From: a phage
Sequence record: PZ583741.1
Length of the DNA: 64,000 nt
Reading direction: 5' to 3' (one strand)
Below are positions 3,216 through 62,662 of this stretch, one piece after another. Both the position numbers and the translations under genes were made by a program. The first letter of the stretch is position 1. Each line of letters starts with the position of its first letter. The notes beneath the pieces are model-generated. The model ran no database searches and was not told the origin of the DNA. It saw only the letters and a program-made list of their open reading frames with translations.

Positions 3216-5124
3216 TATTCTCTCCTGTAAAATCTTTTCTGTGGATTATGTCGCGACCTTTATCATTAATACGATGCGTGATGCGTTTTGGCGCTTTAAT
3301 CAATCCCGCATACATCATGAACTGCTTGGCGTTCTGGCATTTCAGGATTTTTCCAGCCATTGACTTATCATCAAGGTGAGGAAATACTGCCTTTGCCTTG
3401 AACATATTTTTCATGTGAGTTGCGCCGCCATAAGGGTAGAAAACTTCGTTAGCCCAGCCTTCTTTGCCATCACAACGATTAATCCAGTAGCGATATAAAA
3501 TACCATCTCCATCCTTCGTTAACTGGACTTTGAAATCCATAACATCAGCCCACTCATTATCCGTATACGCACGCTCATTCAGTGCCGCATTCGGGTCACG
3601 CAAAACATGATCACAATGCCGGCAATAGCGCGCTGTCGGGTCGTTTTTAGTACCGCATCCATCATCAAAAATACGGATTCCATGCTTATCGAAGCCGCAA
3701 CGGATGTAACTGAAAAACTCCTCGCAGCGACCATCTTGCGACAATGCATCTTTGCCAATGCAGCGGCGCGCAGATGGGCTGTTCATTGTTCCGCATTTCG
3801 GACACGGAACTTGTTCGCCGCTGCGTTTTGAACGTTGCGCTTCAGCCTCTTCCAGAATAGGGTCTTCATACAGCTGACCAAGCTCAAACATCGTTCCTGA
3901 GAAATCAAGAACCAGATGGTCTTCTTTATGATACCCGGCATCAATTTGCTCTTTCTTCAGCAGGCGCATTCCGCGACCAAGCAGCTGAACAAGAAGAGTG
4001 AGTGACATTATTTTTCGTAATATGCAGCTCGTATCCCATAACGGTATATTTACGCCAGTGGTAAGGGCTGCTATCTGGAATGTGAATTTTTTACGCCCGG
4101 TGTATGCATCTTTTAGAGCCTTCCTTCTGGCTTTTGACCCAATATCTTCTGTAACTATTGAATAACTTCCTTCAGGCAAATATTTTGCCGCCTCCTGGCA
4201 ATGCTTTTTACCAGCACATGTAATTAGCACTCCGTTCCTGTTTTTAGTCAACTCCATAACCTTGAGCATGATTTTCTGCGTCAACGTACCTTGCTCAAGA
4301 ATTTCTTTCTGCATCTGCTTGAGCTGCTCGGCGGTAAAGTCCTGAGTGCCATCAACATCTGAACCATGAAAATCCGAAAGGTCATAATGCAGACTATCAA
4401 CATCATGAAGACCAAAAATTGTTGGCACAAGAAAACCGTTTTCAACCATGTACTTGGTGTCTATGTTGATAATCTCTTTCTTCCAGAAAGCGCCTTTTAT
4501 TGATGTAGTTCCGCGAAACGGTGAGCCTGTATAACCTATTATTCTTAACTCATGGCCGTGCTTATCTTTGCACCTTTTCATTAGCTCATTAATTATCACT
4601 GCATACTGCGTATCACCATCATTAACAACGTCAATGTCATTAACCATATGATTTTCATCGATCAGCAGAAATCTTGGGCAAAAGTCAGAAAGCGCGCCTT
4701 TTGCAATAACATTCCCTGACTCATCCTTTTTGTCAAACAAAGCATTTGCAACAGTACCCTCAGAGCCACAGATTATTGGGTACGTAGAACTTTTCCTACC
4801 CAACGAAGCACTGAATAGTGAGTTTCTAACACCAAGCGCCCATAGCTCTTCCGCATCTTGCTCCACTATTTCGCCCTGTCTTGATAAAATCATCCCTGAA
4901 TAGCCCATTTCCTGAAAACGCTTTGCTATCATGGCAATCATTAGTGACTTTCCGCTACCGACGCTTGCTGTTACATAGCTCGGGCCAACATAATGACGAA
5001 TAACATCGCCAGTTAACTTATATATCAACCACTGATAAGGTCTTGGCTCGATATCACCAGTATCCAAGCAGGATTTCAGCAAGTTAATGTCAATCTCTGA
5101 AATCATCTTGTCTATTTTGTGCAT
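3190..5124 (-). CDS. SF2 DNA helicase with C-terminal zinc ribbons
   Basis: 644 aa; Walker A GSGKS, DExH-like LIDENH, motif VI LLGRGMR, CPKCG/CRHC zinc ribbons. Confidence 0.8.
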   Translation of the reverse strand: MHKIDKMISEIDINLLKSCLDTGDIEPRPYQWLIYKLTGDVIRHYVGPSYVTASVGSGKSLMIAMIAKRFQEMGYSGMILSRQGEIVEQDAEELWALGVRNSLFSASLGRKSSTYPIICGSEGTVANALFDKKDESGNVIAKGALSDFCPRFLLIDENHMVNDIDVVNDGDTQYAVIINELMKRCKDKHGHELRIIGYTGSPFRGTTSIKGAFWKKEIINIDTKYMVENGFLVPTIFGLHDVDSLHYDLSDFHGSDVDGTQDFTAEQLKQMQKEILEQGTLTQKIMLKVMELTKNRNGVLITCAGKKHCQEAAKYLPEGSYSIVTEDIGSKARRKALKDAYTGRKKFTFQIAALTTGVNIPLWDTSCILRKIMSLTLLVQLLGRGMRLLKKEQIDAGYHKEDHLVLDFSGTMFELGQLYEDPILEEAEAQRSKRSGEQVPCPKCGTMNSPSARRCIGKDALSQDGRCEEFFSYIRCGFDKHGIRIFDDGCGTKNDPTARYCRHCDHVLRDPNAALNERAYTDNEWADVMDFKVQLTKDGDGILYRYWINRCDGKEGWANEVFYPYGGATHMKNMFKAKAVFPHLDDKSMAGKILKCQNAKQFMMYAGLIKAPKRITHRINDKGRDIIHRKDFTGENSEKAIQAA

Positions 5125-5645
5125 TATTTTACCCTACCAAATTCACCATGATACTTTTTTGATGCTTCCGCATAAACTTTTGCTGCTTCTTCTTTTGTAT
5201 CATATCTGCCGAGCCATATTTTTTTATTATTTACATGTATAGAGCAAGTCCATTTTTTTGTTTGCTTGCAAAAACCAACCCCCTTTACACCGGATGTGTT
5301 ATGGCTTGGAATCCTCATGTTTCTTAAATTTCCATTAAAGTTTGTTTCTCTTAGATTTTCTATCCTGTTATTCAATCTATTACCATCTTTATGGTCTATT
5401 ATTAACTCAGGCCAATAACCATGCACTAAAGCCCAAATTATTCTATGAACCTTTATATCAACACCTAAAAAGCCAACCTGAAGATATCCACTTACAGTCT
5501 TAGAACCTGCAATAGCGCCACGTTTAACCCTGTTTGTTGTTGTTCTTTTCCATATGAGATTTATTCCGTCATATGAAAAATACTCCCGCAACGTGGATAC
5601 TGGTATTGACTTCTCTTTTAACTTCATCAATTCGAAATCATTCAC
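5124..5645 (-). CDS. HNH homing endonuclease with AP2-like DNA-binding domain
   Basis: 173 aa; HRIIWALVHG...IDHKDGNRLNNRIENL HNH motif then GVKGV...W AP2-like segment. Confidence 0.65.
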   Translation of the reverse strand: MNDFELMKLKEKSIPVSTLREYFSYDGINLIWKRTTTNRVKRGAIAGSKTVSGYLQVGFLGVDIKVHRIIWALVHGYWPELIIDHKDGNRLNNRIENLRETNFNGNLRNMRIPSHNTSGVKGVGFCKQTKKWTCSIHVNNKKIWLGRYDTKEEAAKVYAEASKKYHGEFGRVK

Positions 5646-5707: not shown

Positions 5708-6658
5708 ATGTTTTCTTGGGAAGAGATACAACAAAAGATGATTGGAAATTGGGAGGCGGCACTACTGTCAATAGTCAACATAGACAGGAAAATTTTTTCT
5801 GGAAAACATCAACCATGCCCTCATTGCATGGGGGTTGACCGGTTCCGTTGGGATAATCACTTCGAAACAAAAGGCGACGGCGGAGCAATCTGCAATCAGT
5901 GCGGTTCCGGTAGTGGCATGAACTGGCTGATGAAACTCTCCGGCATGAGCTTTCCCGAAGCACTGGAGGCGCTGGGTGGATTCCTGAACATGCACCCGCG
6001 TGAAAAGCTGGAGGCAATCAGGAAGGAGCTGCCGAAGATAAATCACAACGATGACTTCATCACAGAGCAGGAAGTCGCAGCAATCATGGCTAAAACGACG
6101 CGTGTCTCGATGAATGAGTGGACTTTGATAAACGGTATTGGTTGCGACGTTAATGTCGCCAGAGGTAAATCTGGAGAGCTTATTGTGGTTGAGATGGTGC
6201 GTGCTGACACAATGAAGCCGTGCAACGTGGCATTCATTGGCATGGATGGTGATGCATTCAAAACATTTTATAAAGCAGGATACAACAAAGACTCAGCCAT
6301 AAACGGAAAACTCACGCGAGGCTCGATAAGCCCAATCGGAGAAGACAACGGAAAGTTCATTTATCTGGTATCTGATTATGCCGATGCATGGAAATGCCAT
6401 TACTTCACTGGCGCTCATGTCTGGTGTTGCTGGTCGCCGGAAAACATGTGGGAAGTGGTGCGTTCTGTTAGCGATGAGACGAAGGCGAGATTGCGCTGCA
6501 TAGTTAATTATAAATTTGACGAACTTTGCGCTGCGGAAAATTCAGGGCTTCCGGTGATGTTGCCTGATGATGCTGACACTATCAGGATGGCGAAGAGAAT
6601 CAGAAGAAAGATTTATGATGCTGGCGAGTTGATAGAGAAAATGTCAGTCAGCAGATAA
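5708..6658 (+). CDS. DNA primase (zinc-ribbon plus TOPRIM-like domain)
   Basis: 316 aa; CPHCMG...CNQCG zinc ribbon near N-terminus; homolog of B 49122..50045; divergent from helicase. Confidence 0.7.
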   Translation: MFSWEEIQQKMIGNWEAALLSIVNIDRKIFSGKHQPCPHCMGVDRFRWDNHFETKGDGGAICNQCGSGSGMNWLMKLSGMSFPEALEALGGFLNMHPREKLEAIRKELPKINHNDDFITEQEVAAIMAKTTRVSMNEWTLINGIGCDVNVARGKSGELIVVEMVRADTMKPCNVAFIGMDGDAFKTFYKAGYNKDSAINGKLTRGSISPIGEDNGKFIYLVSDYADAWKCHYFTGAHVWCCWSPENMWEVVRSVSDETKARLRCIVNYKFDELCAAENSGLPVMLPDDADTIRMAKRIRRKIYDAGELIEKMSVSR

Positions 6659-6689: not shown

Positions 6690-7094
6690 TCAGCGTTTCA
6701 TCTTGTCAATTTCATCGTCAATAATCTTTATTATCTCTCGCTTTGCATTCCTCCATGCATAAATGGCATCAAGCGAAGCTCTGTCTTTTGAATCACCGGT
6801 AGCTGTTGAATACAGGATTATGTCTCCCATCTTACAAAATGTATCTATGTAAACAGCCCTAAAAAGACCATCGCCGCAACTCCAGCACAAGCAATTATTT
6901 ATTTTCTTGCAATCATTACCAATGATTCCGGTGCTAAACAACTGAATCCAGCCAATAGGTTCACCAATGGAAATGTCATACTCATCACTATGACCACTAA
7001 CAGAGCACTCAAGACGGAACGTTCGATATTCATGCAGATTGAGACATAATGATCTGTAAATAAGGAATTTAGATCTTTTCTTAACGCTCATCAC
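6690..7094 (-). CDS. hypothetical Cys-rich protein
   Basis: 134 aa ORF, several Cys pairs; no family recognised. Confidence 0.35.
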   Translation of the reverse strand: MMSVKKRSKFLIYRSLCLNLHEYRTFRLECSVSGHSDEYDISIGEPIGWIQLFSTGIIGNDCKKINNCLCWSCGDGLFRAVYIDTFCKMGDIILYSTATGDSKDRASLDAIYAWRNAKREIIKIIDDEIDKMKR

Positions 7095-8683
7095 AACCCC
7101 CTCATAAATCTCATGCGCTTAACGGCAGCAGAAAGATAATTTCTAACCGTTGAGTTCATCCGCAGACCATCCCATGAACCATCACTGCACATCTTAATTG
7201 CTCTTGGATTATCCCTGTCCAGCATTAGTGGTGAATGTTTGTTCTCCTCAATAGCAAGAAGAACTTCATAAACAAATTTATCAGGCGTTAACGTGATGTT
7301 GTTCGAGTCAGCAGAATTGATTATCTTTTCGACTCTGTCACGGCACAGCTTGTTCTTTATAACAGACAAATAAGGCGTTTTAATGAATGCTTGTGATTCA
7401 CAAATTCGCTTTATTTTTTCAACAATGTTCGACCACTCAGTATTCTCAAGTCCATCAAATGCCTGTTCACCCTCAAGGAATCTTTTCAGCCCCGCGAGGT
7501 GTTCAAGAACAGTGAGATAACCCCACTCGATATGCTCCGTCGTAACTGATGGTGTCATTCCCTGACGACTTGACAGATCGGTATACGCCGCCAGAGTTGC
7601 AAGATCGACAATCATTAGACCCATGCGAGGGATAACATCACCAACAACACCATCGCAATCACCAAGCTCACTTTCCAGTTTCATAGACAGAGATCTGTGC
7701 AGTTTTTTCGCATTATCATCAGCCCATACAACGTGAGTTTTCGCGGTAAGAACCCTACCTTTCCACTCATTGATTATTTTTCTTGAAAGCGTACCACTCA
7801 CTTCCACATCCTTCATCGCTGGCATTTCCTCACCAGCAAGATGTCCAAGCTGGAACAGAACGCGACCCATACCGCCATCTTTCTGCCATGAACGCGCAGC
7901 ATCTATTCCCTGCTCTGGTGTGACAGTAATCAGCGGAACAAATTTTGCGTTTTCAATTCCACCGTCTTTTGTTGCAATTTCGTACTCATTCATTGCCGAC
8001 TTTAGCGCGCGCCCAACGCTGTGATCCATCATCGCAAGTCGCTTATAATCTATAACTCCTTTTCCATCATCGCCACCAGTAAGTGGCACTATCCATCCCT
8101 CAGCGCTTGCTGCCGCCATGATGCGTTTTGGGTTTTGTTCCCAAGTAAGGTTTTCAAGCAACTCCTTGATTATTGGTCTGTTAGGAACCCACACGCCGCC
8201 ATCAGTGAGGCCTCTATACCACGCCATAGTACCGCCAAGATATGCATTACGCGGGTTATTCCAGTCTTCAAGATGTTGCTTGTCATCATTCACAACGTAG
8301 AGCAAAGACCCACCTCCGGCAATCAGGTCTAACTGCATCTGTTTCGTAGATGTTGATTTAGACGCGCAAACTCTGGACCCTATTCCCAGCGCATTGGCAT
8401 ATGCCCTGACGAAACTCACCGGGGCACCCTTACCTGCACCAGAGCGAGCTACCAGAAATATGCCAGTATTGCAGATACTACCTGTTGGACCAATCAAGTA
8501 TCGTCCAGCCATCGCCTGAGCAAGACCCAAAGCGCCAGTTAAACGATATCTTCCACCTCCATCACGGCGCTCAAACCCCCTTGCGATCTCATCCATAAAC
8601 TCACCAAGTGCCCCGGGAGCATCCCGCTTTATGCCCATAGCCAGAGACTCAAAATCAATCGAACTCATCAATACACCATCCAT
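7091..8683 (-). CDS. P-loop NTPase, putative replication protein
   Basis: 530 aa; Walker A ARSGAGKGAP, Walker B-like LLYVVNDD; same relative position as B 58773..60356. Confidence 0.4.
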   Translation of the reverse strand: MDGVLMSSIDFESLAMGIKRDAPGALGEFMDEIARGFERRDGGGRYRLTGALGLAQAMAGRYLIGPTGSICNTGIFLVARSGAGKGAPVSFVRAYANALGIGSRVCASKSTSTKQMQLDLIAGGGSLLYVVNDDKQHLEDWNNPRNAYLGGTMAWYRGLTDGGVWVPNRPIIKELLENLTWEQNPKRIMAAASAEGWIVPLTGGDDGKGVIDYKRLAMMDHSVGRALKSAMNEYEIATKDGGIENAKFVPLITVTPEQGIDAARSWQKDGGMGRVLFQLGHLAGEEMPAMKDVEVSGTLSRKIINEWKGRVLTAKTHVVWADDNAKKLHRSLSMKLESELGDCDGVVGDVIPRMGLMIVDLATLAAYTDLSSRQGMTPSVTTEHIEWGYLTVLEHLAGLKRFLEGEQAFDGLENTEWSNIVEKIKRICESQAFIKTPYLSVIKNKLCRDRVEKIINSADSNNITLTPDKFVYEVLLAIEENKHSPLMLDRDNPRAIKMCSDGSWDGLRMNSTVRNYLSAAVKRMRFMRGL

Positions 8684-8997
8684 ACGCGCAAGAATTTACC
8701 ATGGATAACACCATGTTTCACCGTTAACACAGCACCCACCCTGTCAGCCTCAATTTTTAGCGCCCTCTGAAGTGACGCCATTGTCATCTGAAAACCTCGC
8801 TCTATGTCGTATGCGTAGCACCCATCTCTGCCACCAATCAAAATTGAAGTTGAATACCCGTTCTCAAAGTAAAACTGACACCCATCAGGAGCGGTAAGAT
8901 TATTTATCACGTCGTGAGCAAGCGATGTCGTAACAGGGAATATCGGAGCGCAACTCATACTCACCTCACTCAACTCGCTTAATGTGCAAAACTTCAT
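8668..8997 (-). CDS. hypothetical protein
   Basis: 109 aa ORF in minus-strand operon. Confidence 0.3.
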   Translation of the reverse strand: MKFCTLSELSEVSMSCAPIFPVTTSLAHDVINNLTAPDGCQFYFENGYSTSILIGGRDGCYAYDIERGFQMTMASLQRALKIEADRVGAVLTVKHGVIHGKFLRVWMVY

Positions 8998-9214
8998 CGA
9001 AATATGAGCACGTTCTGAATTTCATCCCAAAATCCTCACCAACCCTTCCGAGACACGCGCGAAATCTTTCAACAGAAAGCCCTTTATCTGCAATATCCTC
9101 ATAAGCAATTGAATTAACCTGGCCAACATCCATATGTTTTGCAACGCGATACACGAATTCCATCTTTGAACCATCACGATACATTTTGTTTCTCATAGTC
9201 ACCTCAATCCGCAT
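8966..9214 (-). CDS. hypothetical protein
   Basis: 82 aa ORF, first gene of minus-strand operon. Confidence 0.3.
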   Translation of the reverse strand: MRIEVTMRNKMYRDGSKMEFVYRVAKHMDVGQVNSIAYEDIADKGLSVERFRACLGRVGEDFGMKFRTCSYFDEVLHIKRVE

Positions 9215-9851
9215 TCCAACAGTAACTATAGATAAAAAATAAAATTAACGCAACGCAAAACAGGTCTAACCAGCAACAACAGCTACCACACTTAACAACT
9301 AGTCTGACCACCATCTCGTATCAGATATATGTGGATGGTGCCCGTCGTTTAATTTGTGCTCGATTTTTACCTAATTTACCGTATATTTATTGGTCAGTTT
9401 TTGCATAACTAATTGATTTATATGATTTACCGGTTTTACCGGAACTCTAAGGAGTATTTTCATCATTGAGAGTAGTAGTATATTAATTGGTCTAATTTTT
9501 AAATAACTCTAATAAAATCAATATATTAATATAAGAAAGTAACTTGCTTACTTATATAGGATTTACCGGGTAAAACCGGTAACTCCTCCGCATCCCGCGT
9601 CATTACTGGATTGATTTTTACCACCTGTAGGTAAATACAGTAGTTTTTAAGTCAGGATTGTTTTTGTAAGATGTTGATTACCGGTACTTTATTTGAAAAA
9701 CCGGGATTTACCGGGTTTTTGTTGTGTGATTAATAATTGCGCAATTGGTCATGTTTCAACAGAACACACTGATGCGACATCTGAAAATCATATTGACGTA
9801 GAATTACAACTGATGTAGATTGAACTCATCGAAACAAACGAGGGTGAAGAG
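9215..9851. promoter_or_regulatory. AT-rich divergent intergenic region with at least five (A/G)TTTACCGG(G)T repeats
   Basis: atttaccggttttaccgg, atttaccgggtaaaaccggtaa (palindromic), gattaccggt, ccgggatttaccgggttttt read directly; 640 bp without ORFs. Confidence 0.5.
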
Positions 9852-10037
9852 ATGAAAGAAGAAAGCACGTACAGCATTGACCAGATGAAGTTATTCAGCG
9901 ATATATGCATGGCATTGTCACAACAGGTTCCAAGCCTGCCTGCTGATATGCGCTCAAATGCCATCATTGATGCGGCAAACATGATTTGCGAGGCATATGC
10001 GATGACTGAAGATGAATATAAGGATTCGAAGAAATGA
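9852..10037 (+). CDS. hypothetical small protein
   Basis: 61 aa ORF starting the plus-strand operon. Confidence 0.35.
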   Translation: MKEESTYSIDQMKLFSDICMALSQQVPSLPADMRSNAIIDAANMICEAYAMTEDEYKDSKK

Positions 10038-10436
10038 CAGGCGCAGCATTCGAGCTTATCGCCAGTCTGGTTATCGCGGCATTCATTATCATCGCAGTGG
10101 CAGTTTATAAATCAGGATATAAGGAGTGACAGAATGAGCAGCTGGCATAATGAACACATCATGCAATGGTATCGTCGCCGCATTAAGACAATCATTAACT
10201 CTCACGAGGTGCAATAAATGGCAAAGACTATCTATCGTCGCGAGAAGCTGGAATAAGAACTCGGTCACGTTGGCGCGCAGAACTTCATGAGCAAGCAGGC
10301 ACGCAATGCAATGGAATCTATCCGCGTAAATCGCGTTGTGCGCGTGTTCAATGGCGAGGGTAAACGAAGAGTAATGGATGAGCTGATTATCGTATTTTGA
10401 CCTCGATTCAGCGCTCTTATTTTTAATGGTGATGAT

Positions 10437-10670
10437 ATGGCAAAAGTAAAAACATATGAGTTCTGGTTTGTGCAGAACAAAATTCATGCAAGCAAGATAA
10501 TCAAGCGAGCGCACTGGTGGAATAAGTGGCTAATCCTGTCAGGATGCATTGTGCTGGCAAAGTGCAAATTCAAAGCGATTGACATCACAGATGAGGATTC
10601 ACTCAAAATCGCAAAGATTGAGTTTGAAGAAGATGGCTATTACGAAGAAATTATGGGGGTTAGGGTATGA
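10437..10670 (+). CDS. hypothetical small protein
   Basis: 77 aa ORF. Confidence 0.35.
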   Translation: MAKVKTYEFWFVQNKIHASKIIKRAHWWNKWLILSGCIVLAKCKFKAIDITDEDSLKIAKIEFEEDGYYEEIMGVRV

Positions 10671-12435: not shown

Positions 12436-12534
12436 CTGATTTATAATAATTAATGCGGCTAGGGGGCACCCGAAAAGCGACTCATCACCGCCTGCCGCAT
12501 TCACTTCAATGATGCCCTGATGAGGAATCTATAT

Positions 12535-43449: not shown

Positions 43450-43938
43450 TATCGCAAATTTACCCATAAATCATGGTTACGCGTAACCGATGTAACTCGA
43501 TGTATACCATAGCCACCCGCGAGAAATGATATACGCACTGTTACGCCAATTTACGCAATGGTTACATTAAAATATCTATATATATCAACCTTTTACTCTT
43601 ATTATTATTATTATATATATTACCGTGTATATCATGTAACTACTGTTCTGGAGTGTTCCGGTTATAATTTTTATATTATGTGGATTTATACAGTATTGCG
43701 CGGCACCTATACATATGCACCATCCGTTAAAATAGGTATACACGATATACGCACCATTTACATTGAGCTATAGCTGGGCTTAAGTGGTGAAAAACGTAAC
43801 AAATGGCGATGTCTACACGTAGTTACAAAATTATACGCGTAAACTTGAATCAACGATTGGCAAAACCAATTGGACTACGCGTCGTGCGTAAGGCATCATT
43901 AACTCATCGAAAGCAAACAACAATAGAGAGATAAAGAA
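43440..43938. promoter_or_regulatory. AT-rich divergent control region (copy 1) with (TA)n, (ATT)n and 20-bp element cattgagctatagctgggct
   Basis: About 500 bp without ORFs; element at 43761..43780 contains perfect palindrome agctatagct; paralogous to 61940..62662. Confidence 0.5.
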
Positions 43939-58772: not shown

Positions 58773-60356
58773 TCACCCCAGCAGTCGCGGATTAATGTAA
58801 ACTTTATCACCAATCAGGCACGTATAGTTTTTCTCATCAAGCATTGGCAGTAAGTGATCTTTAATCTTCGTCATCACTCCAGCCTGAGCCTCGAACGGCT
58901 TAACATTGCGAGCAGCTTCATACAATGAGCGAATACCAACTACGCCCTTACCGTTTTTGCCTTGCTTGATCAGAATATCAATCAGCTTATTCATCTCGGC
59001 ATTGTCGCCAGCGTGACCAGCTGCGTTAGCAGATGACAAATAAGTCTTGCTCAGTTCCTGAAACATAATAACAGCTTCTTGCATCGTATCTAGCTCGATC
59101 TCTCTAGACTTACGCGGACTCCCGCCATTTGGGTTAAACCAGTTACGCACGGTATGAAGAACCGCCGCAATTCGGATAGCCTGCTTGTCGAATTTACCCA
59201 GGGCGCCGCGCAACATTGTGTGTGAATACTTACCGCCGTCAGCAAGGTGAGGTTCCATTTCCTGACGCGCGCGGTTGAGATACTTCATTGCTGAGTTGCT
59301 CACTGTCAACTTAACATCCTGCTCATTCATTATTTCGTGAACAAGTCGGAAGTAATCAGCCTTCAATGCGCCATCAATTGGCTCGTAAGTTGAATCTCCA
59401 TTTTCATCAACGAATACACGTTCGCCAAGGAATGACTTCTCGCGGACCAAAAGGAAGCGCTCAGATACACCGATACCACGCGCACCAGCGTTCATAATAG
59501 CGTTGATTGTCTCATCCTGCGCAATTACGGAGATACAGCCCATGGCAACGAAGCTCATGTTGTTCTCTGCGTTCGCACGTGCGATAGATACGTTACCAGC
59601 ATCCCATGCTTTAAGCACAAGCTCGCTGTTCGTTTTCTTTGAGCCGTCACCATAGGTCATACCAAGCAGTGAGTTTACACTAGTCGCCTCATCAGAGATG
59701 ACAGCAAAGTTGCCCTGACGGTTGTTTATTCTGGCAAGGCCCTCAGGCGTGGTATCGGACACGGGGAAAACGATATCGCATAGCTTCTCGAGCTTTTCCT
59801 CGAGTTCCTCCTTCTCTTCAAATAGAGAAGCCATCTCTGAAGGAGATTTCTCCTGCTTCATCTCTTTGGATAATGCAGAAAGTTTTGCCATTATTTTCTT
59901 GCGCTCACGCTTACGCACCTCATTCAGTCGCTCAGTCTCAGCAATCATTGGAGCAATTGAAAGTGAGTTGATGGCTGATTTACCAGTCGATGGGGGCTGG
60001 CTTGTTACGACGTACAGCGAGGTTGGTTGCTGAGTCCCGTGATATTCAACAGTAAATCGTCCAAGCATGGCAGCAGAAATACACCCCAGAAAGTGCATGT
60101 ATGCGGAAGACTCTGGAAACTGAACAGAACGGGCAATATTGGCTGACAGCTTACCAACAATATCAACATCATTTCCGAGTGAGATTACAGGATACTTGTC
60201 ATTAGCGGCATCAATCTCGACCGGAGACTTCCAGAATGATTGAGACTGGCGATAGCCATTGGCATTAATGGCGACTCGCAGTGGTGGGAGGTTGTCTGCG
60301 GATGCAATTGCCATAACCTGTTCAACAGATAGTTTATCTTCGTTGAAATCAAACAT
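58773..60356 (-). CDS. P-loop NTPase, putative replication protein
   Basis: 527 aa; Walker A SQPPSTGKSA, Walker B-like FAVISDEA; minus-strand cassette upstream; N- and C-termini shared with 63142..63666. Confidence 0.45.
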   Translation of the reverse strand: MFDFNEDKLSVEQVMAIASADNLPPLRVAINANGYRQSQSFWKSPVEIDAANDKYPVISLGNDVDIVGKLSANIARSVQFPESSAYMHFLGCISAAMLGRFTVEYHGTQQPTSLYVVTSQPPSTGKSAINSLSIAPMIAETERLNEVRKRERKKIMAKLSALSKEMKQEKSPSEMASLFEEKEELEEKLEKLCDIVFPVSDTTPEGLARINNRQGNFAVISDEATSVNSLLGMTYGDGSKKTNSELVLKAWDAGNVSIARANAENNMSFVAMGCISVIAQDETINAIMNAGARGIGVSERFLLVREKSFLGERVFVDENGDSTYEPIDGALKADYFRLVHEIMNEQDVKLTVSNSAMKYLNRARQEMEPHLADGGKYSHTMLRGALGKFDKQAIRIAAVLHTVRNWFNPNGGSPRKSREIELDTMQEAVIMFQELSKTYLSSANAAGHAGDNAEMNKLIDILIKQGKNGKGVVGIRSLYEAARNVKPFEAQAGVMTKIKDHLLPMLDEKNYTCLIGDKVYINPRLLG

Positions 60357-61939: not shown

Positions 61940-62662
61940 ATTGCGCGGTAGTATTTACCCTTTTTAGTCTCTTTCGAGAGTGACTCAGAGTCTGCTACCG
62001 TGTCGATGAGATTAAGTATACGCATAGTTAGCCACACTGTCTTTAGCAAAAAGTGCTATTCGTTAGATTTATGGATTGTTGCAGATATTGCAATGATTCA
62101 CATGACTATTGCACATACAGCAATATTGCTTCAGATGCAATGATGTTTTTGATTGTTGCGAAAATTGAAATGAAGTGGAGATTGAGTGAATGAAAGATGG
62201 ATGGACTACCATACAAGTTGATTTTGATCTTGACTGAGCCATTTTCACGCTTACACGTAACCGCTGTAGCGCGATGTAAGCCAACGCCTATCGTTACGCG
62301 AGTTACGCGAAGCTACGCCATGACTTACACTATAAGTGCTTAATATATATATATATCTTCTTTCTATTATTATTATTATTATTAATATTATTGTATGTAA
62401 GTCATGTAACCGGGTGTTCGGCGGTATCTATATGTTTTTTCCTATCAGAATACATTATTTCCATTTTATGCGAGATTTAGCCATTATGGGGCCACCTAGC
62501 TAATTTACCTCGTTACACGCACGACACGAAACTACATTGAGCTATAGCTGGGCTGGTGTGCCATTTCGCGTAACGACCCCCAAAAGTTACCAAAAATTAC
62601 ACTTGACTACATGTGTAAGTCGGGATATGATGGATTCAACTTAAACGAGAGGAGTAATAGAA
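61940..62662. promoter_or_regulatory. AT-rich divergent control region (copy 2) with (TA)n, (ATT)n and 20-bp element cattgagctatagctgggct
   Basis: Element at 62535..62554; (tatt)/(att) run 62361..62390; paralogous to 43440..43938. Confidence 0.5.
62043..62060 (-). promoter_or_regulatory. B cassette motif on minus strand, variant (aatagcactttttgctaa)
   Basis: Reverse complement read directly. Confidence 0.45.

Follow-up and report, generated by a model that had tools for sequence, protein, structure and literature searches.

The divergent intergenic region described here occupies positions 9197-9851 of a 64,000-nucleotide stretch of phage DNA (sequence record PZ583741.1; the window), in a part that stems from a Skatevirus-like Escherichia coli siphophage whose nearest relatives are vB_EcoS_ASO78B, Bas81, ZCEC08, Bas80 and Bas77. 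It separates a leftward replication operon from a rightward early operon, and holds a field of short repeated sites around an AT-rich spacer. Its limits were drawn from the list of open reading frames (ORFs), the sequence and the gene starts used by relatives; at the left, 9197 is a likelier boundary than 9215, because the relatives place the start of their first leftward gene at 9196, at an ATG that has a GAGGTG ribosome-binding site. This gene (8966-9196, minus strand, placed from the ORF list and the relatives' start) encodes a 76-residue protein to which no function is assigned. It is followed by the gene for a 96-residue protein, also unassigned (8668-8958, minus strand, from the ORF list and comparisons), and by that for a 530-residue P-loop protein (7091-8683, minus strand), whose start is 5 codons later, at 8668, in relatives. 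On the other side, small early genes run rightward from 9852 and lead to a terminase gene at 12520. The region has a G+C content of 34%, compared with roughly 37-49% in 1-kb windows. An earlier note on this DNA, made from the letters alone, had described it as AT-rich and ORF-free; the composition is as stated, and the only ORF found is one of 41 codons starting with TTG (9693-9818), which overlaps the rightward promoter and is annotated in some relatives.

The repeated unit has TTTACC as its true core, and 11 oriented copies of this core, in both orientations, lie within 9366-9714. From left to right, an outer pair (9366-9382, plus strand) consists of TTTACCTA and TTTACCGT, 9 bp apart with cores at 9366 and 9375, points toward the AT-rich centre and is kept in Bas80 and Bas77. 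The inner-left pair found by motif scan (9426-9442, plus strand) is made of two copies of TTTACCGG, starting at 9426 and 9435 and thus also 9 bp apart; it abuts the spacer and is the inverted-repeat partner of 9569-9585 (I1, 17 nt, 94%). Beyond the 118-bp spacer (9443-9560, approximately 79% A+T), the inner-right cluster (9562-9583), invariant in all six aligned phages, combines a plus-strand TTTACCGG site at 9562-9569 with an overlapping tandem pair at 9567-9574 and 9576-9583 that reads TTTACCCG and GTTACCGG on the minus strand. The spacer is therefore flanked on both sides by inward-pointing tandem pairs, with a distance of 9 bp between partners. Further right are an inverted pair, TTTACC-N6-GGTAAA (9617-9635, cores at 9617-9622 and 9630-9635), within a longer invariant block, and the outer-right plus-strand sites (9677-9714), also kept in Bas80 and Bas77, namely ATTACCGG at 9677-9684, the half-site ACCGG at 9700-9704 and TTTACCGG at 9707-9714. 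The invariant block, TTTTTACCACCTGTAGGTAAATACAGTAG (9615-9645), comprises this inverted pair together with a palindrome, CTGTA-N6-TACAG, and is conserved above its surroundings in the six aligned phages.

Motif enumeration across the window confirmed that repeated, partly palindromic units are clustered here, as the earlier note had claimed, and the four strings it quoted are all present (atttaccggttttaccgg at 9425-9442, atttaccgggtaaaaccggtaa at 9561-9582, gattaccggt at 9676-9685 and ccgggatttaccgggttttt at 9701-9720). Enrichment was tested over 9350-9730, an interval of 381 bp within which the clustered copies of TTTACC and TTACCGG span 9364-9716. All four window copies of TTTACCGG fall inside the site field, as do six of the nine copies of TTACCGG (binomial P 3.7e-12), a window count that none of 100 dinucleotide shuffles reached. 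The shorter strings behave alike, with 9 of 62 copies of TTTACC in the interval where 0.37 would be expected (binomial P 1.4e-10), and 10 of 61 copies of ACCGG (P 3.8e-12). The motif is thus strongly concentrated in this region, and not spread at like density throughout the genome, which the earlier note had named as the outcome that would speak against its proposal.

The spacer stands out physically as well as in its composition. Of all 100-bp stretches in the window, the one with the lowest stability falls inside it (-103.2 kcal/mol; mean -134.9, standard deviation 6.7), as do the AT-richest stretches of 80, 100 and 120 bp, and on the basis of stability and AT content we consider it a candidate DNA-unwinding element. 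Plus-strand promoter-like matches inside it (9457 and 9498) are weak and are most simply explained as by-products of its AT-richness. The predicted promoters lie farther out. A strong sigma-70-type rightward early promoter, TTGACG-17-TAGATT, is predicted at 9793-9821 (plus strand, score 13.1), and the best leftward candidate for the replication operon, also of sigma-70 type, is TTGCGT-17-TATAGT at 9225-9253, with the highest position weight matrix score on the minus strand (9.7); it is kept in Bas81, ASO78B and ZCEC08 and replaced in Bas80 and Bas77. The site field overlaps no promoter hexamer, being approximately 80 bp from the rightward -35 element and approximately 110 bp from the leftward candidate. 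The segment 9787-9851, which carries the rightward promoter, leader and ribosome-binding site, is approximately 90-98% identical in some 150 phages, whatever their motif; their hosts are Salmonella, Escherichia, Shigella and Klebsiella, with one Acinetobacter phage record. A motif scan of the region for the DnaA box TTWTNCACA found none. Exact matches to the integration host factor (IHF) consensus WATCAANNNNTTR number three in the site field (9406-9418, minus; 9516-9528, plus; 9667-9679, minus) and nine window-wide. The positions of the three are conserved in Bas80, and three matches never arose in 500 base-composition shuffles of the region; in other lineages the number is zero to two, and the feature is thus not universal.

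Alignment with Bas80 and Bas77, in which the region is approximately 82% identical, showed 94% identity in site columns and 76% in the other columns (Fisher P 1e-5). Since between the window and Bas80 the site columns are better conserved than the rest of the region, this comparison indicates that purifying selection acts on the sites.

Comparison with related phages, which the earlier note had proposed, revealed that the layout recurs in lineages that use other motifs. The 530-residue protein is rare: tblastn retrieved only 11 phage records, and a search for related loci with alignment A2 returned only the three lineages already known. In the shared layout, an inward-pointing tandem pair, its members spaced by 8-9 bp, is separated from an inverted tandem pair by 95-125 bp of AT-rich DNA, and outer sites are present in addition. 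Window and Bas80 carry TTTACCGG as their motif. In swi2 and L010, whose helicases are 51% and 47% identical to that of the window (the L010 protein being P0005), the motif is GTTACCGG; in KpnS_VR6602 and BUCT541 (58%) it is GAGTTCCCG, and in KLB16 (33%) it is TTTACTA. The Salmonella relative Segz_1 has GGATAAA sites, arranged less cleanly, and a 495-residue helicase that is distant in sequence and clearly homologous in predicted structure (BFVD matches with template modelling (TM) scores of 0.74-0.79, E 1e-17).

Homology between the window and Segz_1 ends at 7097 and restarts at 9787, and for this reason the helicase gene, the small genes and the site field appear, from sequence comparison, to be one exchangeable 2.7-kb cassette between conserved flanks. 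The 9787-9851 block forms a sharp recombination boundary of this helicase/origin cassette. Bas80 and Bas77 have unrelated sequence in place of 8968-9349, which comprises the first small gene and the leftward promoter region, but keep the helicase, the 96-residue gene and the sites; this replacement is a second, smaller mosaic joint within the cassette. The window's two small proteins, encoded within 8668-9214, are apparently related to a single protein of 88-92 residues in swi2, KpnS and L010. In Kpn_74, the N-terminus matches the 82-residue ORF (47% over 34 residues, E 1e-5), and residues 10-91 match the 109-residue ORF (24%, E 2e-5), which suggests, at the level of these alignments, that a duplication or a split lies behind the two small proteins.

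The natural variation in motif allowed us to ask which protein goes with the sites, and the comparisons point to one domain of the 530-residue helicase. Codons 405-500 (7184-7471, minus strand) encode a C-terminal helix-helix-helix-beta-hairpin domain, winged-helix-like by its DSSP assignment, which this assignment and the domain identities together make the proposed reader of the iterons. Between the window and KpnS, which differ in motif, the ATPase domain (residues 50-300) is 66% identical and the C-terminal domain (405-500) 44%; between the window and swi2, which share the TTACCGG core, the values are 50% and 62%. In a three-way comparison of informative sites, the window sides with swi2 and with KpnS in a ratio of 17:57 in the ATPase domain, and of 22:4 in residues 405-500 (Fisher P 4e-8). 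Judged from these alignments, motif class goes with the helicase's C-terminal domain, and neither with its ATPase domain nor with the small neighbouring proteins, which are considered below. Physical linkage cannot explain the co-variation, because the part of the gene that encodes the C-terminal domain is the farthest from the sites, and the ATPase segment, with the opposite affinity, lies between them. The relationship was also used predictively: P0005 has a swi2-like C-terminal domain, and GTTACCGG sites were thus expected nearby; indeed, L010, in which P0005 is encoded, carries ten copies of AGTTACC, arranged as predicted.

The extreme C-terminus of the helicase behaves differently. Residues 501-530 (7091-7183) form a basic amphipathic helix, GLRMNSxVRNxLSAAxKRMRFMR, of which 511-528 is very conserved. 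Although their motifs differ, lineages of the window, swi2, L010 and KpnS types share 71-77% identity in this segment, more than in any other part of the helicase; identity to KLB16 is 13-23%. It may be a partner-binding or ring-closing element.

On profile and predicted-fold evidence from Pfam, AlphaFold2 (AF2) and Foldseek, the 530-residue protein is assigned to the DUF3987/MCM-like helicases of superfamily 6 (SF6) as a divergent member, and is the proposed initiator. DUF3987 helicases are distantly MCM-related SF6 enzymes of phages and mobile elements (PMC4889955); for one of them, AgaPH, helicase activity and binding to its primase have been demonstrated (PMC11724360). A profile built from six homologues and run against 1.84 billion representatives reached 50 clusters at E<=1e-3, indicating a rare, divergent branch. 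Its distant matches are DUF3987 proteins and Prim-Pol-PriCT_2-DUF3987 or NrS-1-like fusions; against the PF13148 cut-off of 27 bits, P0024 scores above (35.3), and P0021 (25.8) and P0037 (25.4) just below. The AF2 model is of good quality (predicted local distance difference test score, pLDDT, 87; predicted TM-score, pTM, 0.75). Of the 17 top Foldseek matches in the PDB, 16 are MCM subunits, with probabilities up to 1.0, and BFVD yielded many DUF3987 proteins and phage primase-helicases or replicative helicases (probability 1.0, E 1e-17 to 1e-5). Sequence searches of the PDB, with the helicase or with a 22-sequence profile, returned only P-loop noise and no detectable similarity to solved structures. 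Among 22 aligned sequences, the Walker A residues G84 and K85 are invariant, as are R274 and R353, with T255 nearly so, and DD is retained in the consensus where Walker B is expected; R274 and R353 are presumably the arginine finger and sensor 2. In the model, DSSP assigns helices at 439-446, 449-459 and 467-479 and strands at 486-488 and 495-498, an order that is consistent with a winged helix. The protein thus resembles DUF3987 helicases in its P-loop ATPase core with an invariant Walker A, its predicted C-terminal winged-helix-like domain, its genetic association with a primase and its fold matches.

The analysis shows how the sites cluster, are conserved and are laid out, how unstable the spacer is, to which fold class the helicase belongs and that motif and C-terminal domain co-vary; from this we infer that the region is probably a replication origin for a self-loading initiator-helicase, a reading based on computational evidence. 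The earlier note had offered an origin as one interpretation and the adjacent P-loop protein as a candidate binder. Both gain support from the convergent arrays around the least stable DNA, the lack of promoter overlap, the co-variation of sites and C-terminal domain and the MCM-like/DUF3987 assignment. In the proposed mechanism, host RNA polymerase would transcribe the leftward operon to yield the MCM-like helicase, which would also be the initiator, and the winged-helix-like C-terminal domain of this protein would read the 8-9-bp TTTACC(GG) iterons. As the rightward pair at 9426-9442 and the leftward pair at 9567-9583 face each other across the spacer, two rings could assemble in mirror orientation, melt the spacer and load themselves, after which the phage DnaG-type primase (encoded at 5708-6658) and a host polymerase would begin bidirectional synthesis. 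The outer sites (9366-9382, 9617-9635 and 9677-9714) would add cooperative binding, and opening could be aided by divergent transcription from the flanking promoters and possibly by IHF bending; by the twin-domain model, transcription that departs both ways would leave the spacer underwound.

The closest known system is the ori/Rep pair of the staphylococcal pathogenicity islands (SaPI). The 6-12 iterons of a SaPI origin are placed around an AT-rich centre, two or more to each side, and those of the two sides point in opposite directions; Rep, which serves as helicase and as initiator, binds the iterons through a C-terminal winged helix and is proposed to load as two hexamers, and one Rep class (SaPIbov1/SaPI2) is SF6/MCM-like (PMC9371898; PMC7581432). 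Here, where at least six short repeats near an initiator-helicase gene would be expected, we find 11 sites at approximately 0.7 kb from the helicase start, and an AT-rich centre with opposed pairs is present in the window as well as in swi2, L010, KpnS and KLB16. The two systems would thus share iterons around an AT-rich centre, a helicase-initiator with a C-terminal winged helix, element-specific pairing, a nearby primase and two-hexamer loading, the helicase's role, its winged helix and the loading being proposals in our case. They differ in that the window derives from a virulent siphophage of a Gram-negative host and not from a satellite island, in that its units are of 8-9 bp (TTTACCGG) in 9-bp tandem pairs and not penta- or hexanucleotides, and in that its predicted helicase has no detectable sequence similarity to solved structures.

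Several points weigh against the origin reading and the assignments on which it draws. The SaPI origin lies directly downstream of rep, whereas the sites here lie between divergent promoters, upstream of the helicase operon and with two small genes in between. Pfam DUF3987 (PF13148) matches the 530-residue protein with E 0.023 and 14.4 bits, below the gathering score of 27, which, with its place in a rare divergent branch, sets it apart from DUF3987 helicases proper. The PDB fold matches are modest (E 0.01-0.15, TM-scores 0.3-0.37), and the winged-helix-like call for the C-terminal domain comes from the order of secondary-structure elements in a predicted model. The GC-skew minimum at approximately 9-10 kb coincides with the switch in coding strand; it is therefore not independent evidence for an origin and was set aside. 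Our literature search found no experimental binding, melting or origin data for any relative.

Finally, operators, too, would be expected in the space that separates two divergent promoters, and the earlier note had itself named a repressor-controlled divergent promoter as an alternative. In such an arrangement, the 76- or the 96-residue protein would be a regulator that acts on an array of operators to control both promoters, as an early-to-middle switch or in autoregulation of the replication operon. A site field between divergent operons and partly palindromic units would suit this role, as would adjacent small proteins that match no known family, the 90% identity of the 96-residue protein between the window and Bas80, which share a motif, and the failure of AF2 to give it a fold (the model from a shallow alignment has a pLDDT of 45 and is unusable), which leaves room for a DNA-binding function. 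However, the sites overlap neither promoter, the rightward promoter is retained across motif types, and 11 sites over 350 bp around a 118-bp AT-rich core would be unusual for an operator. The small proteins do not track the motif either: the 76-residue protein is only 31% identical in Bas80 despite the common motif, and the 96-residue protein is 27% identical between the window and swi2, which have the same core, but 46% between swi2 and KpnS, which have different motifs. In addition, KLB16 keeps the repeat layout with no small ORF between sites and helicase, and searches of Pfam and PHROGs with the 76/82- and 96/109-residue proteins found no informative family, nor any Pfam match, helix-turn-helix (HTH) families included, at E<=10. 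We thus regard an operator array as unlikely, and the repressor alternative is disfavoured since the sites avoid both promoters and follow a helicase domain. A combined function, in which origin sites and helicase-initiator would also tune the flanking transcription in the manner of autoregulating plasmid Rep proteins, would fit all of the observations; it draws on all the evidence for an origin and on the position between two promoters. In swi2, the last site is indeed a few bp upstream of the rightward -35 element, but the window has no site within 80 bp of a promoter hexamer, and this possibility seems quite unlikely to us.

Repeats could also mark a packaging (pac) region, at which the small terminase subunit would bind and start headful packaging. 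Some pac sites, such as that of SPP1, do have repeated sites with bent AT-rich DNA; here, the relatives are deposited as circularly permuted genomes and terminase genes lie approximately 2-3 kb downstream. Yet the motif is swapped with the helicase cassette (7098-9786) and varies together with the C-terminal domain of the helicase, the early and terminase region downstream of it is conserved across motif types, and more than 2 kb separate the site field from the terminase genes, which makes this explanation very unlikely. It is highly improbable that the sites serve a host factor or are functionless low-complexity repeats, as might be imagined from the AT-richness of the region and its three matches to the IHF consensus. 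The motif differs among close E. coli phages (TTTACCGG or GTTACCGG) and follows a phage protein domain, the site columns are selectively conserved and the region has no DnaA box; host-factor sites were rejected as the main explanation because phages that infect a single host differ in motif.

Other systems share parts of the proposed origin design. Satellite phage P4 encodes alpha, a fusion of a primase with an SF3 (D5-like) helicase, whose type I iterons read TGTTCACC, and needs a second cis site, crr. Like alpha and its ori, the system proposed here would pair an initiator-helicase that has a C-terminal origin-binding domain with clustered octamers in both orientations; convergent pairs around an AT-rich core are not the P4 design. 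The origins of papillomavirus E1 and SV40 large T antigen, which PMC7581432 cites as analogues, likewise have inverted short sites that flank an AT-rich or easily melted element and two head-to-head hexamers, the latter being a proposal in our case, but these SF3 proteins of eukaryotic viruses have an N-terminal origin-binding domain and no sequence relationship to the window helicase. In iteron plasmids such as pSC101, R6K, RK2 and P1 (reviewed in PMC4980987), initiator sites are also clustered beside an AT-rich unwinding element, with possible involvement of IHF; they differ in their direct, helically phased iterons of approximately 17-22 bp, a non-helicase WH1-WH2 Rep, DnaA boxes and the use of DnaB/DnaC. 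A plasmid-type iteron origin (Rep_3/pi/TrfA) was rejected, the units here being of 8-9 bp and in both orientations, with no DnaA box in the region and no adjacent Rep-family protein found. A lambdoid OR-type operator region was also set aside, as the sites are at least 80 bp from the promoters and no HTH family match was obtained.

The leftward operon also encodes a 134-residue protein. Further left are genes for the DnaG-type primase, an HNH endonuclease, an SF2 helicase, a RecE-like exonuclease and Erf. The gene between those for the SF2 helicase and the primase (5124-5645) resembles HNH-AP2 homing endonucleases and is present only in some relatives. A scan of 8500-10500 against Rfam (E<=1) found nothing relevant, and thus no sign of a known structured RNA, and a scan for consensus terminators gave a single weak match at chance level (9334-9346).

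The window is a composite, whose positions 1 to at least 24 kb are Skatevirus/Segzyvirus-like and whose 40-64 kb part is Dhillonvirus-like (82-92% identity). The earlier note had contrasted the motif system of the region with that of the latter, its genome B; the sequence does differ, being GTTACGCG there, but both follow one design, and a DUF3987 protein is encoded in genome B as well. This Dhillonvirus-like genome, from approximately 40 kb, has a clear DUF3987 gene at 58773-60356 (Pfam E 7.6e-42), whose 527-residue product shows no BLASTP similarity to the window helicase, though it is DUF3987 by Pfam. In its divergent intergenic region (62285-62662), GTTACGCG is repeated in tandem at 62293 and 62302, with a spacing of 9 bp, and inverted at 62567, and the (TA)n/(ATT)n stretch after the tandem pair contains the window's second least stable 100-bp segment. 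Another GTTACGCG cluster lies between divergent genes at 43476-43650, with the palindrome GTTACGCGTAAC at 43476-43487 and GTTACGCC at 43540, and directly adjoins the window's third least stable 100-bp segment; this cluster is possibly another origin-like site.

We lean, if narrowly, towards a more general view, in which Skatevirus-like phages, and apparently the Dhillonvirus-like genome too, replicate from a swappable 2.7-kb cassette made of an MCM-like DUF3987 helicase that itself recognises the origin and of convergent 8-9-bp iterons, matched to it, around an unwinding element. The design itself is already known from SaPI islands. In the literature searched, where coverage was incomplete, we found no account of an origin in Skatevirus-like phages or of one used by a DUF3987 helicase, and genome papers on the relatives label the helicase as hypothetical.

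If the origin reading is correct, it would assign roles to a conserved non-coding block of 350 bp and an orphan protein of 530 residues, whose carriers include therapeutic-candidate phages of E. coli, Klebsiella and Salmonella, and would explain one mosaic hot spot as the exchange of matched initiator/origin cassettes. The at least five natural variants of the motif (TTTACCGG, GTTACCGG, GAGTTCCCG, TTTACTA and GGATAAA) would offer material for a winged-helix/iteron recognition code and for orthogonal origins and, paired with their C-terminal domain variants, a ready series for tests of specificity. The system would also be a simple bacterial model for the self-loading of an MCM-like helicase, and a bacterial-virus counterpart of double-hexamer loading at the origins of eukaryotic viruses.

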